A stretch of DNA of 64,000 nt from a bacterium (GCA_018660415.1 JABJKG010000013.1:193874-257873); one strand, 5' to 3'; numbered from the stretch's first letter, positions 24,670-28,601 are shown. Numbers and translations are program-made. Notes: generated by a model not told the origin, from the sequence alone.

Positions 24670-24746
24670 GTGCCTGTAGCTCAGCAGGATAGAGCAACGG
24701 ATTTCTAATCCGTAGGTCGCAGGTTCGAATCCTGCCAGGCACACCA
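24670..24746 (+). tRNA. tRNA-Arg (anticodon UCU)
   Basis: Hand-folded cloverleaf: acceptor GTGCCTG/CAGGCAC, D arm GCTC-AGCAGGATA-GAGC, anticodon arm ACGGA-TTTCTAA-TCCGT, T arm GCAGG-TTCGAAT-CCTGC, discriminator A, encoded CCA. Confidence 0.9.
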
Positions 24747-27700
24747 TTGACTAATTTCCGGCAAATCTAGAAATTCATAATCGGACGGTTTATAATTCAT
24801 GGCTTCAAGCTTTGCTCGTAGCATTTTTCCATCCATACCTTCTCCAAGAGCTGGTACAAGACCATAGCATTCACCACAGGCTAATCCGATAATGGTTTTG
24901 TTAACTTTTCCAACTTTGACTATATCGGTTTGTTCCGTTATATGCCATCCAAAACTAACTTCCGCTTGATCGATCCAGAAGTCATCCATTTCCTTGCTAA
25001 TGGATTTAGTAATTATGGTTGGTTTTGTTTTAAACTGAACATCTTGTAATAGGGCTATAAGAGAAACAAAACTATGAAGCATTTTCCAACGAGTAACGAT
25101 TACACCAAAGAAGGTCCACTTGGTTTCCATGGTTTTGTTTGTTTTGTCATAAATTATTTTGACTATAGCGCTATGGTGATGCATCGGGATATTGATAGTG
25201 TAAATGATTTCTTTTTTGCTTATTGTGATACCAACAAGGTGGTCTCTAAAGCGTTGAACGTTTCCTTGTATTATTTCAGGATCCGTTTCGCCGTGAGCGA
25301 TTACTTTCTGCACAAGTGGTGGAAGCTCCATGGTGCCAAGGCTTGTTTTTTTAATCATTCCAGAAACGATAGCAAGCAAGTTTTGGTGAGTGAGAGTGAA
25401 TAAATCTTCTAGTGATACGGGTAATTGGCAATCAAACAAATAACTGGCTGAGCCGACAGTAGCGATACTGACAACAAAACACGCTGAAGGTTGGATGGAG
25501 GCTTCCACTTGTTCAAAATCCTTTTCAAGAGGGTTAAATACCCTCTCTAGGTATTCTTCTCGACTGAGCATGGAGTTATTCCATTCATCAGGTAAAAGTT
25601 CATCGTACCAATTGATAAATAAGTTATGGAAGCGTCGTACCATGCGTTGCATATGAACAACCTTTTGTTGGGTTGTAAACTCTTCACTAACCTTCATAGC
25701 CTTAATGGCAGCATCAATACTTTTAATCAGATTTTGCATAATGTTAGTAGCACAGAATGTTATAACGTCAGAACCATTTTTGATACTGGTTAAAAAGTGT
25801 TTTGAGGTAACGGTTGAAATAATAGCTTCAATTTCGTTCCAGGCTTTATCAAATTCTTTTGCATGACTAAATCGATCTGAATTTTCATAAATAGATAAAA
25901 GCTGATTTTGAATTGATTTGAATTCAGCAAGAAGAGCTTTGTTATCATTGAGTTTTAATAATTGAGAGAGAGCTTCTTTTTTTGTTGGTTCAGGCAGCAA
26001 GACCATTTTTGTTTCAGTACGTTGTTCAGTTATGCAATTACAAAAAGGATCGAGAATATCTTCAACAGTTACTGTTTCAGTTGTAGAAGGTTTTACAGCT
26101 TGTATAAACTCTGTTTCCAGCCAAACTGGGATAGCACCAAAATCGTTGATCATACTCAGCATTTCTTTTAATTCTAGGCACTCTGTTGAAGAAATATCAA
26201 CATTTTGTGATGGTTCTATACCAGCAAGAAAATCGAGCCATAGGTTATCGGTTTCGCTACAGAATGAACAATCAGCAAAGAGTGCTTCAGTTGCAAATTC
26301 AGGGTCAGCGATATTGAGTTTACTTCTATATCTACTTGCTTGAGTAAAAAGATACTCTTCTGGCTTGAATGTTAAAAGTGAGTATGCAGCTAAAATGTTT
26401 TCTTGTTCTGTTGGTTGTTGTCCGAGCAAAGCTTCAAGGGTTCTGATTGTATAGAGTCGCTCCAGGCTTCCAGCAGGCTTGTTAACCGCATAAAAAAGAT
26501 CTTTGATGGTTATTTCAGCTTTCTCTTGAAGACTTTCTAGTATTGATAAGGTTTGCTTGCTGTTATGAATAATCATCGGCAATCCATCAATCATACCCTT
26601 TTTACGGGAAATTTGTGCAAATGCCCTTAAGAGTGTTTTTGTTTGGTTGATTGGTTGTGCAAACAGGTGTATCACACTTTTAAGTGCGTTTTGTAATTCA
26701 ACTTTATTTGTTGAGAATTTTAAAGTTTCTAAGATATTTAACGTATCAGTATCTAAAGAACGTTTTTGTTGTGGGGTAAATGATGAACAAGGATTAAGTG
26801 AAGTGGTTGATAATTTAATTGGCAGCGGATGGAAGTACGAATTCCATCGCTTTTCAACATAGCTGTTGGCTTTAGCGATAAGTGTTTTTGCTTTTCGTAA
26901 TAAGGTAACCTTGGTTTTTTTGACCGGTTGTGCATAGAAATGTTTTGCGTTTTTAAGTGTGTATTGTAGGTCAGCCCCATTTATTGAGTACTTTAAAGTT
27001 TCTATAGCATGTAAGGCATCTTCCTTGAGCGAATATTTTTTTGGTGGTAGGTAGGTTACCGTTGTTTTTTTAGTAGAGAGGGACAGTTGTAATGGCATTG
27101 GGTGTGAGTACCAGCCTTGATATACAAAAGGTTTTTCGTTGAATTGCTTTATAGAATTATTCCAGGCATACAAGGTATTTCGTTGCATATCACAGATGCA
27201 AAGGTTGGAACTGTCTACATTCTTTATGAGTGTTTTGACTTGTTCAAACTCAGGCACAAATATAACGGGAACATTGATAGTTGCAAAGTTAACAGCAGGG
27301 TGTGAGTTGGCTGCAGCAGGGATCGCTACAATGACTAATTTATGATGCGGTTTATAATTTTGTTCTGCTGTTTCAATGTTTTGCTCAATTAAAATATCTG
27401 AAGATTTGAAAAGGGTAAGAAGTTTACTACCAGCTGGAACAATAGTTGAAAAGTCGACTTCTTCTTGAATTGGATTAGAAGTTAGTTTATCAATGGCTGC
27501 CTTATTTAAGTACGATGGTGTTGCTTGTGTTCGAATAACAGGTCGTGCTTGTACAAGGTAGACCGCACCATTAAGAACTACAAATTCTACATCAGTAGCC
27601 TGTTGGTAATGGCGTTCAATTTTGCGTCCAAGGTCATATAAGGTTTGAAGTGACTGTGTGCTTAACGATGCACGGTTAGCGATTGTAGTATTATTATCTA

Positions 27701-28601
27701 TAGAAACAAGCTTATACTGCTTACCATCTTTATTTGGAATAATACGTGCACGCTTTTGTGCGATTACACTTTGTGTTTGCAATGATTTATTACGTAATGA
27801 AGGAGATATCATAAATGTATCAGTTGGCACTAGGTTGGCTACAACGCCTTCACCATGGCCGTATGAACTGTTGATCCGTGTTACATGAAATTTTTCTGTA
27901 CCGGTATATAATGGCTCATTAGTAAACATCACTCCCGATACTGGAATGCCTGTTTCCTTTAAAGCGCCATCAACAGTTTCACCAATCAGCTCTTGAAGAA
28001 GAACTGGCATTGGCGGAATTTCTGCAAAGATATCTTCCCCAGCATTAAGCCGGTTTTTAAATGACTGTGATCCGAAGTATGATGCAATAACAGAACCAAT
28101 AGCGTCTACAACACTTCGCGGTTCAGGTTTAACGTAGGCAATACTTTCGTTACCACCAGCATTAGCACACGTGGCACTATCTTCAGCACCTGTGCTTCGT
28201 ACCATGAGGTAACCATTTTTATTTTTAATTTGTGTAAGCCATGCAAGAGTCTTGGTATCAAGTAATGACTCAGGATCAGCTGCAGAAAAAACTTGTTTAA
28301 TATTAGCTGATATTTGCTCAATAAGACTGCAAGATCCATTCTTGAGTTGCTTAATAGATTTAGATTGGTTGGTGGTGAATTTCTTCCAGAGCGCAAAAGT
28401 ACCTGCCCCCTGTTGTTCTAAGAATTGTGTTATCTTTTGATCAGATAGCCCTAAAAATGCGGGCACATGTTCTTGACCAACAACTGAGGATAATACCTGC
28501 AAGTTGTCGTGTTTAGAGCCAAAAAACTCTAAGTTTTTACCAAATGCTGCTGTAGAAAGCACCATTGAAGCTATTGTAGCTAACATTACTCTTTTTGTCA
28601 T
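24705..28601 (-). CDS. Large exported protein with a PEP-synthase/PPDK-type ATP-grasp (PPDK_N) domain and a swivel phospho-His-like domain, plus about 850 aa of unknown C-terminal region
   Basis: The ATG at 28599-28601 is preceded by GGAGG. Signal peptide MTKRVMLATIASMVLSTAAFG. YLMVRSTGAEDS...AGGNESIAYV and DVEFVVLNGAVYLVQARPV match the PPDK_N signatures. VIVAIPAAANSHPAVNFATINVPVIFV resembles the GGxTSHAAIxARExGIPxV mobile His domain. There is an internal duplicated module of about 75 aa. Confidence 0.75.
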   Translation of the reverse strand: MTKRVMLATIASMVLSTAAFGKNLEFFGSKHDNLQVLSSVVGQEHVPAFLGLSDQKITQFLEQQGAGTFALWKKFTTNQSKSIKQLKNGSCSLIEQISANIKQVFSAADPESLLDTKTLAWLTQIKNKNGYLMVRSTGAEDSATCANAGGNESIAYVKPEPRSVVDAIGSVIASYFGSQSFKNRLNAGEDIFAEIPPMPVLLQELIGETVDGALKETGIPVSGVMFTNEPLYTGTEKFHVTRINSSYGHGEGVVANLVPTDTFMISPSLRNKSLQTQSVIAQKRARIIPNKDGKQYKLVSIDNNTTIANRASLSTQSLQTLYDLGRKIERHYQQATDVEFVVLNGAVYLVQARPVIRTQATPSYLNKAAIDKLTSNPIQEEVDFSTIVPAGSKLLTLFKSSDILIEQNIETAEQNYKPHHKLVIVAIPAAANSHPAVNFATINVPVIFVPEFEQVKTLIKNVDSSNLCICDMQRNTLYAWNNSIKQFNEKPFVYQGWYSHPMPLQLSLSTKKTTVTYLPPKKYSLKEDALHAIETLKYSINGADLQYTLKNAKHFYAQPVKKTKVTLLRKAKTLIAKANSYVEKRWNSYFHPLPIKLSTTSLNPCSSFTPQQKRSLDTDTLNILETLKFSTNKVELQNALKSVIHLFAQPINQTKTLLRAFAQISRKKGMIDGLPMIIHNSKQTLSILESLQEKAEITIKDLFYAVNKPAGSLERLYTIRTLEALLGQQPTEQENILAAYSLLTFKPEEYLFTQASRYRSKLNIADPEFATEALFADCSFCSETDNLWLDFLAGIEPSQNVDISSTECLELKEMLSMINDFGAIPVWLETEFIQAVKPSTTETVTVEDILDPFCNCITEQRTETKMVLLPEPTKKEALSQLLKLNDNKALLAEFKSIQNQLLSIYENSDRFSHAKEFDKAWNEIEAIISTVTSKHFLTSIKNGSDVITFCATNIMQNLIKSIDAAIKAMKVSEEFTTQQKVVHMQRMVRRFHNLFINWYDELLPDEWNNSMLSREEYLERVFNPLEKDFEQVEASIQPSACFVVSIATVGSASYLFDCQLPVSLEDLFTLTHQNLLAIVSGMIKKTSLGTMELPPLVQKVIAHGETDPEIIQGNVQRFRDHLVGITISKKEIIYTINIPMHHHSAIVKIIYDKTNKTMETKWTFFGVIVTRWKMLHSFVSLIALLQDVQFKTKPTIITKSISKEMDDFWIDQAEVSFGWHITEQTDIVKVGKVNKTIIGLACGECYGLVPALGEGMDGKMLRAKLEAMNYKPSDYEFLDLPEISQWCAWQDSNLRPTD

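Follow-up and report, generated by a model that had tools for sequence, protein, structure and literature searches.

The locus and the predicted dikinase core

The 64,000-nucleotide (nt) stretch of bacterial DNA analysed here (GCA_018660415.1, JABJKG010000013.1:193874-257873; hereafter the window) carries on its minus strand a long gene for a dikinase-like protein, in which what reads as a Sec-type signal peptide is followed by an ATP-grasp domain, a predicted swivel phosphohistidine domain and a C-terminal region for which our searches returned no relative (Table 1). Babeliales/TM6 sequences share 88-90% identity with the GroEL encoded in the window, which we assign, by sequence, to the genome of a protist parasite of the phylum Dependentiae (TM6/Babeliales). 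The uninterrupted open reading frame (ORF) spans 24705..28616 on the minus strand, encodes 1303 amino acids (aa) and starts five codons before an ATG at 28601. Because a GGAGG at 28610..28614 is spaced 8 nt from that ATG, the true start is most likely MTKRVML at 28601, as an earlier, sequence-only reading of the window had also proposed, which would give a protein of 1298 aa. Residue numbers refer to the 1303-aa ORF throughout, the 1298-aa protein beginning at its second Met. The same 1303-aa protein was found, identical, on 21 metagenome contigs from several samples, most of them with the same gene neighbours.

The N-terminal half contains the single significant Pfam family of the query, PPDK_N (PF01326), which matches residues 32-365 with E=5.6e-35 and so gives substance to the PPDK_N signatures picked out by the sequence-only reading. 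Sequence searches of the PDB returned Listeria rifampin phosphotransferase (RPH) and phosphoenolpyruvate (PEP) synthases, in the ATP-grasp domain only. The NCBIfam models for PEP synthase, RPH and PigC/RedH likewise match the PPDK_N stretch only, with scores 6-20 times under their cut-offs (73-97 bits versus about 600-1060 for the PEP synthase models, 76 bits versus 999 for the Rph model NF041857). In a 36-sequence alignment, K35, R140, E145/D146, S158, D342/E344 and Q356/R358 are invariant or nearly so. Among these, K35, E145/D146, D342/E344 and Q356/R358 correspond to Lys22, Glu323, Gln335 and Arg337 of pyruvate phosphate dikinase (PPDK). A profile alignment sets R140 and S158 on Arg117 and Thr136 of RPH-Lm, two residues that contact the alpha-phosphate of ADP and are required for rifampin resistance (PMC4844700). 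Judged by these residues, the enzyme core looks active.

Some 300 residues past the MVRSTGAED motif, almost all of 120 homologues carry the motif P-A-N-S-H-P-V-V-N-F, and the 36-sequence alignment shows no variation at S438, H439, V442 or N443. Distant members (Coxiellaceae, Legionella, other Gammaproteobacteria and TM6) have A-P-[SA]-T-S-H-E-A as their motif, T-S-H being the canonical motif of PEP-utilising enzymes. Against PEP synthase 8a8e the family profile aligns unbroken from the ATP-grasp domain on into the swivel (E=8e-18), setting 'anSHpvVNFsslgiPclyv' on 'RTSHAAIVSRELGIPCVVG' and His439 on the His of the TSH motif. When the swivel segments of 23 members were tested alone (alignment A5), six of them matched PF00391, the best with E=1.2e-5, and this was the sole Pfam family matched more than once. 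An AlphaFold model of residues 27-520 (predicted local distance difference test, pLDDT, 91.8; predicted template modelling score, pTM, 0.89) places His439 at the head of a helix that follows a strand, and a Foldseek search with this model found RPH as its best PDB match (E=7e-18), with PEP synthase 2ols at E=2e-16 over 489 of 494 residues and PPDK at E=1e-10. On this family and fold evidence, the sequence of the query alone being insufficient, we conclude that the His segment is a swivel phosphohistidine domain. The phospho-histidine mobile segment described by the sequence-only reading has in this way gained an invariant His439, a family-level PF00391 match, the 8a8e alignment and a predicted fold; the profile and structure comparison of that segment, named beforehand as the place where the reading could fail, came out as a swivel domain.

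The C-terminal region and its family

The C-terminal region comprises about 650 aa, or about 740 aa in the query with its duplication. No significant Pfam match was obtained beyond residue 365, and searches of Pfam and of PDB sequences returned none beyond residue 500; a match to Pox_A3L (E=0.003-0.009, under its Pfam cut-off) was set aside as spurious. A model of residues 588-1289 (pLDDT 81.3, pTM 0.82) is all-helical to about residue 1120 and then forms a six-stranded alpha/beta subdomain at 1123-1247; as modelled, the region is not a TIM barrel. The PEP/pyruvate TIM barrel (PF02896) was found neither by Pfam nor in the model, by Foldseek or in the NCBIfam scores, and the fold and sequence of the rifampin-binding domain were absent from the Foldseek and NF041857 results, RPH structures being in the library searched. 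Foldseek gave the C-terminal model no match better than E=0.39, neither the PDB nor BFVD yielded a relative, and PEP synthase, PPDK and RPH chains were absent among the matches listed. The sequence-only reading had seen no PEP/pyruvate barrel and had found that the remainder resembled nothing recognisable, and both statements stand after the Pfam, PDB-sequence, model and Foldseek comparisons: the region is, in prediction, helical plus alpha/beta and has no detectable relative. Protein-kinase C-lobes (JNK, p38, GAK, AAK1 and viral Ser/Thr kinases) did recur among the Foldseek matches, at E>=0.5 over 80-120 residues with root-mean-square deviations (rmsd) of about 6-9 A, and were rejected, as were the longer alignments to Vps34 and SRPK1, likewise at E>=0.5 and with rmsd of 13-18 A; the recurrence reflects the over-representation of kinases in the PDB.

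The most conserved stretch, the C-module, lies in this same region. In the C-terminal region 20 columns are invariant; His, Lys, Arg, Asp and Glu are frequent among these columns, which include D968, K972, K975, E1070, D1071, H1077-Q-N, N1142, H1148-S and R1176-W, a composition that would be expected of a phosphoryl-transfer site. Since the C-terminal alignment A3 was distorted by a duplicated module, alignment A4, which starts at the second copy, was used instead. The query departs from its family at two places, reading PMHHHS at the family motif PLRNHS and having the common R-H of FxRHxP replaced.

The duplication itself, described as an internal repeat of about 75 aa by the sequence-only reading, was recovered as two adjacent copies (residues 502-590 and 591-680) with 44% identity over 72 aa (E=2e-20); it is in frame, about 89 aa long, and retains the HP motif in both copies. 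At the DNA level, identity between the copies is 68% over 137 nt, and the alignment scores 49 where shuffles score 11.3 +/- 1.5. Tandem Repeats Finder did not detect the internal duplication, and pairwise protein and DNA comparison shows the copies to be diverged. P0002 and other homologues have one copy of the module, and the tandem duplication is specific to the query's lineage. At the 3' end, the final 14 codons and the stop codon (24705..24746, minus strand) lie antisense inside a tRNA-Arg(TCT) gene, with the stop in the anticodon loop region, and this overlap begins about 55-90 residues past the end of the conserved core. Either the dikinase gene reads through into the tRNA gene, or its original 3' end has been replaced. 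A genomic island at tRNA-Arg was considered and rejected: housekeeping genes lie on either side, and neither an integrase nor other island features were found nearby.

Searched exhaustively with phmmer, the C-terminal region by itself matched 479 cluster representatives at 50% identity, 287 of them at E<=1e-10, so that the family numbers at least 479 such clusters. Among the 150 C-region matches listed, the region nearly always lies over 700 residues from the N-terminus of a long protein, behind an ATP-grasp-swivel core. Chlamydiota are the main carriers of the family among species-representative genomes; it also occurs in Dependentiae/TM6/Babeliales, one Legionella, one Coxiellaceae and further gammaproteobacterial metagenome-assembled genomes (MAGs), with up to five loci per genome among the 80 listed. 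For the most part the family is restricted to bacteria with an intracellular life in eukaryotes. Its members vary at both ends: N-terminal extensions range from 0 to 900 aa, and those at the C-terminus often carry HEAT/ARM or DUF4116 repeats.

Table 1. Features of the dikinase-like gene and its 3' flank, with coordinates counted from the first letter of the window
Feature	Position	Strand	Remarks
Dikinase-like protein coding sequence	24705..28601	-	1298 aa from the Met preceded by a Shine-Dalgarno sequence
Shine-Dalgarno GGAGG	28610..28614	-	8 nt upstream of ATG 28601; read from sequence
Predicted Sec-type signal peptide MTKRVMLATIASMVLSTAAFG	28539..28601	-	aa 6-26; likely cleavage between AFG and K
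PPDK_N ATP-grasp nucleotide-binding domain	27522..28523	-	aa 32-365; PF01326, E=5.6e-35
Predicted swivel phosphohistidine domain	27117..27470	-	aa ~383-500; alignments, model, Foldseek
His439 codon, predicted phosphate carrier	27300..27302	-	motif ANSHPAVNF; invariant in alignments A1, A2 and A5
Duplicated module, copy 1	26847..27113	-	aa 502-590; invariant H505-P506 hinge, WYSHP
Duplicated module, copy 2	26577..26846	-	aa 591-680; WNSYFHP
All-helical part of the novel C-terminal region (model)	25251..26576	-	aa ~681-1122; D968, K972, K975, E1070, D1071, H1077-Q-N
Alpha/beta subdomain (model)	24876..25250	-	aa ~1123-1247; six strands, two helices; N1142, H1148-S1149, R1176, W1177
Autonomous C-module	24876..26249	-	aa ~790-1247; separate signal-peptide protein in other Dependentiae (P0141, P0196, second ORFs of L031, L038 and L006)
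C-terminal tail and stop codon	24705..24875	-	poor conservation, low model confidence
tRNA-Arg(TCT)	24670..24746	+	opposite strand; 42-nt overlap with the 3' end of the gene

Predicted export and a proposed function

The signal peptide call was made by reading the sequence together with a hydropathy scan, which gave 2.26 for the query. The N-terminus has a basic n-region (MTKR), then VMLATIASMVLSTAAF with a 16-residue hydrophobic core, and then the likely cleavage site between AFG and K, with small residues at -3 and -1; the site lies seven residues from the first conserved ATP-grasp motif, G33-S-K35, and no Met occurs between the MTKRV start and that conserved G33-x-K35. The closest homologues (P0002, P0003, P0012, P0044 and P0048) have similar signal-type N-termini. 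More widely, 38 of 163 full-length representatives begin with a signal-peptide-like sequence and have the ATP-grasp domain directly after it, and the remainder (about 77%) have long, non-hydrophobic N-terminal extensions.

Export of both parts of the protein is indicated by a natural experiment of gene fission. In the complete genome of Dependentiae bacterium Noda2021 (AP025250; L031) the gene is present as two adjacent ORFs (2905..6578); in a MAG syntenic with it (L038) the homologous gene is split in the same manner into two ORFs (2911..6644), and in a third Dependentiae genome (L006; 2842..6524) it is split at a different point. In all three, each of the two ORFs starts with its own n-h-AXA signal peptide, that of the second ORF of L031 being MFRTYIIIAILAQSFAAFA followed by MQQ. 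A further homologue, the 534-aa P0141, consists of a C-module on its own, starts with a signal peptide and ends in a hydrophobic tail. Because the separated second half has gained a signal peptide of its own, both halves would have to leave the cytoplasm, and we believe that the split genes argue strongly for export; because these second halves stand alone, the last 430-510 residues form an autonomous module. Apparently split genes were also seen in two chlamydial MAGs, L014 and L054, whose second ORFs lack a signal peptide; with contig coverage of about 1x and about 7x, respectively, we treat these as assembly errors or pseudogenes. Taken with the n-h-c layout, the AFG site and the homologues' N-termini, the split halves support the signal peptide that the sequence-only reading had called clear, and the N-terminus is predicted to be a cleavable signal peptide and not the membrane anchor of an ordinary enzyme.

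Overall, we favour reading the product as a three-module 'substrate, water dikinase' that belongs to the PEP synthase/PPDK/RPH superfamily, is exported and passes phosphate to a probably host-derived acceptor, and we would give it a probability of roughly 0.55. The dikinase core, considered alone, is very likely. The chemistry of beta-phosphate transfer is proposed by homology with PEP synthase, PPDK and RPH (PMC4844700), the prerequisites of sequence and fold being present. In outline, the signal peptide would be removed during passage through the Sec pathway, and the ATP-grasp domain would bind ATP, whose beta-phosphate would be attacked by His439 of the swivel domain, yielding phospho-His439 and releasing AMP and orthophosphate. 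The swivel would then turn on its linkers, among them the invariant HP hinge (duplicated in the query), and dock on the novel C-terminal module, where the conserved polar set of D968, K972, K975, E1070, D1071, H1077, Q1078, N1079, N1142, H1148, S1149 and R1176 may position an acceptor hydroxyl to receive the phosphate.

The acceptor is most likely neither pyruvate nor rifampin but a molecule of the eukaryotic host cell, because the bacteria live inside cells, because ATP is available outside the bacterium only there, and because the family is multi-copy, crosses phyla and carries protein-interaction repeats. The order of the domains, the conserved catalytic residues, the signal peptides on intact and split forms and the taxonomic range are observed; that the protein travels past the periplasm, and that its acceptor comes from the host, we infer. 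An effector role is suggested by the distribution among intracellular bacteria, by the multiple copies and HEAT-type extensions, and by the proposal that the signal-peptide secretome of the Dependentiae acts on the host: in Chromulinavorax destructans, a member of the phylum, 44% of coding sequences have signal peptides, Sec is the one secretion system described, and secreted host-modifying factors were proposed (PMC6561590). A bolder version, which we put forward tentatively and would not assume, is that the family comprises the first secreted effectors whose target is a macromolecule of the host (protein, glycan, or a lipid such as a phosphoinositide), phosphorylated through the ATP-grasp/swivelling-phosphohistidine dikinase mechanism and not by a protein-kinase-like fold, and that it has spread horizontally among three unrelated lineages living in protists, Dependentiae, Chlamydiota and Legionellales, each of which has fitted it to a way of export of its own, with Sec signal peptides on some members and long N-terminal extensions on others.

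Several observations weigh against an exported dikinase acting on the host. The query's own swivel segment reached no Pfam threshold, that of PF00391 included, and a swivel-only profile matched PEP synthase at E=0.15. About three quarters of family members have no signal peptide, and where one is present the Sec pathway takes the protein to the periplasm only; no outer-membrane secretion system was identified in the 64-kb window. Signal peptides are moreover so common in this genome, with about half of the window's ORFs starting with signal-peptide-like sequences, that one taken alone is weak evidence for an effector role, since even a class-V aminotransferase in the window has one. Lastly, a few family loci are labelled Myxococcaceae, Planctomycetes or archaeon, the taxonomic labels of MAGs being noisy.

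The main alternative is a periplasmic dikinase that works for the bacterium itself. As Dependentiae and Chlamydiae take up ATP from the host, ATP has to pass through their periplasm, where a Sec-exported enzyme could spend it on phosphorylating part of the envelope, or a host metabolite on its way in. A dependence of C. destructans on host ATP has been described (PMC6561590), the signal peptide guarantees delivery to the periplasm and no further, and the C-terminal hydrophobic tails of P0003, P0012 and P0141 could anchor those proteins in a membrane. Nonetheless, most chlamydial members have long non-hydrophobic N-terminal extensions in place of a signal peptide, many members carry HEAT/ARM or DUF4116 protein-interaction extensions that are atypical of periplasmic enzymes, and multi-copy expansion with spread across phyla is more like effector families than housekeeping envelope enzymes. 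Nor is there a conserved neighbourhood of envelope or transport genes, the neighbours in the window being VTT/DedA and M49 genes. We consider a periplasmic role unlikely, while recognising in it the strongest of the competing explanations.

An enzyme that inactivates a xenobiotic or antibiotic, akin to RPH and serving small-molecule defence, is a good deal less probable. RPHs are the nearest solved structures by sequence and by fold, RPH-Lm (5hv1, 5fbs) being itself a dikinase and the query's best Foldseek match in the PDB, and the relatives of RPH have been described as a large unexplored group whose substrates are unknown (PMC4844700). The domain of RPH that binds the non-ATP substrate has a unique, largely helical fold without structural homologues (PMC4844700), which shows that the dikinase core can be joined to new acceptor domains. 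The order of the modules differs, however: in RPH the rifampin-binding domain stands between the ATP-grasp domain and a C-terminal swivel (PMC4844700), whereas the query has a central swivel followed by its acceptor module, and the C-terminal model is unlike the rifampin-binding domain although RPH structures could have been matched. In addition, the NCBIfam Rph score falls far short of its cut-off, RPH acts on its antibiotic in the cytosol and a resistance enzyme has no obvious need of export, and the family occurs in host-dependent bacteria with reduced genomes.

It is less probable still that the protein is an ordinary cytoplasmic enzyme acting on a cytosolic metabolite, its 'signal peptide' being a mis-called start or an N-terminal membrane anchor. 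Such a view would suit the majority of family members, which lack an N-terminal hydrophobic segment, and the characterised relatives, all of which are established as cytosolic (PMC4844700). Against it, the Shine-Dalgarno sequence fixes the start at MTKRV with no later Met before G33-x-K35, the n-h-c layout with its AFG site is typical of a cleavable signal peptide, and signal peptides with AXA sites arose independently on the second halves where the gene is split. Equally improbable is a catalytically dead scaffold or pseudogene remnant with an acceptor domain altered by duplication and a 3' end run into a tRNA gene: the 89-aa duplication, the antisense tail and the two departures from family motifs are unusual, but all invariant catalytic positions are kept, the protein recurs identically on 21 contigs, the duplication is in frame with both HP motifs, and the conserved core stops short of the tRNA.

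Returning to the proposed exported dikinase, the order of its first two modules is that of PEP synthase (2ols, 8a8e) and PPDK (1kbl), with ATP-grasp at the N-terminus, a central swivel, the ATP-site residues and the catalytic His of [T/N]-S-H; these enzymes end in their own PEP/pyruvate TIM barrel, however, where the query has its relative-less region, and the query adds a signal peptide. To our knowledge, the characterised dikinases of this type are all cytosolic enzymes of metabolism or resistance: PEP synthase, PPDK, RPH, PigC/RedH and the hydroxyphenylethanone kinases. Two-component dikinases such as the hydroxyphenylethanone kinase HpeHI (9goj) and phenylphosphate synthase resemble the split Dependentiae genes in being divided between polypeptides. 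The ATP-grasp subunit of HpeHI-type systems is separate from the swivel/substrate subunit, and the systems are cytosolic and catabolic (PMC12167813); the Dependentiae genes, by contrast, break within the acceptor region and carry signal peptides on both parts. The secreted candidates of C. destructans (ankyrin proteins, proteases and nucleases with signal peptides) share the phylum and the Sec-type signal peptide of the query, but that description mentions no dikinase or ATP-grasp enzyme, and the word 'kinase' is absent from its text (PMC6561590). Literature searches found no description of the query's family. The catalytic principle is known; the novelty lies in the acceptor module, in export and in the ecological range of the family.

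If this exported dikinase with a new acceptor module is real, it would represent a new catalytic mechanism for the modification of host cells by bacteria, one whose importance is heightened by the hundreds of family variants across Dependentiae, Chlamydiota and Legionellales, and it would be the first candidate secreted enzyme with testable chemistry for the poorly understood phylum Dependentiae. The C-module, with its at least 479 clusters, is in itself a large domain family without a Pfam entry or a structural relative. Ready-made mutants and constructs are at hand in His439, in the C-module's conserved polar residues and in the forms that occur naturally as two genes.

Neighbouring genes

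The dikinase-like gene is flanked by a VTT/DedA-family gene on one side and an M49 peptidase gene on the other, a housekeeping context and not an island. PADLOC found no anti-phage defence family, and the idea of a defence system was dropped for that reason. The M49 (dipeptidyl-peptidase III family) gene is adjacent and on the same strand (28781..30964, minus); its product begins with the signal-peptide-like MKKAIFLTLLSFQGIMINKSLA and may be an exported enzyme. Close by, at 31044..32402 on the minus strand, lies the class-V aminotransferase (Aminotran_5, E=2e-118; cysteine desulfurase-like), which starts with the signal-peptide-like MKKIAIATLALGLLSSNIY, an unexpected feature in a pyridoxal-phosphate enzyme that is normally cytosolic.

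The window also encodes a deoxynucleoside kinase, many ORFs without a Pfam match and an ankyrin-repeat protein (46343..47536, minus strand) with a signal-peptide-like N-terminus, which fits the pattern reported for the Dependentiae, where signal peptides are found on most ankyrin proteins (PMC6561590). Among the ORFs that lack a Pfam family are two pairs of neighbours whose signal-like N-termini closely resemble each other within the pair: 2039..2503 and 2925..3449 on the plus strand (..IFYISLLLICVNSFPMS and ..LIYISLFLICFNSLPMT), and 40255..41001 and 41047..41592 on the minus strand (..LVSLNIYSNDNEFYFPPPPPS and ..LVSLNIYSSGKITPPPT); both pairs look like tandem paralogues of small exported proteins. 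In an unusually long protein of 1207 aa with a signal-like N-terminus (4850..8473, plus strand), MscS channel domains are confined to the final 200 or so residues, leaving about 1000 unannotated. A further protein (21272..22123, plus strand) combines ATP-cone, Mrr-type restriction-endonuclease and AF1548-like C-terminal domains in one polypeptide. Three further tRNA genes, Ser-TGA, Arg-ACG and Ser-GCT, form a cluster at 59304..60321 on the minus strand, with truB (59429..60100) between the first and the other two.

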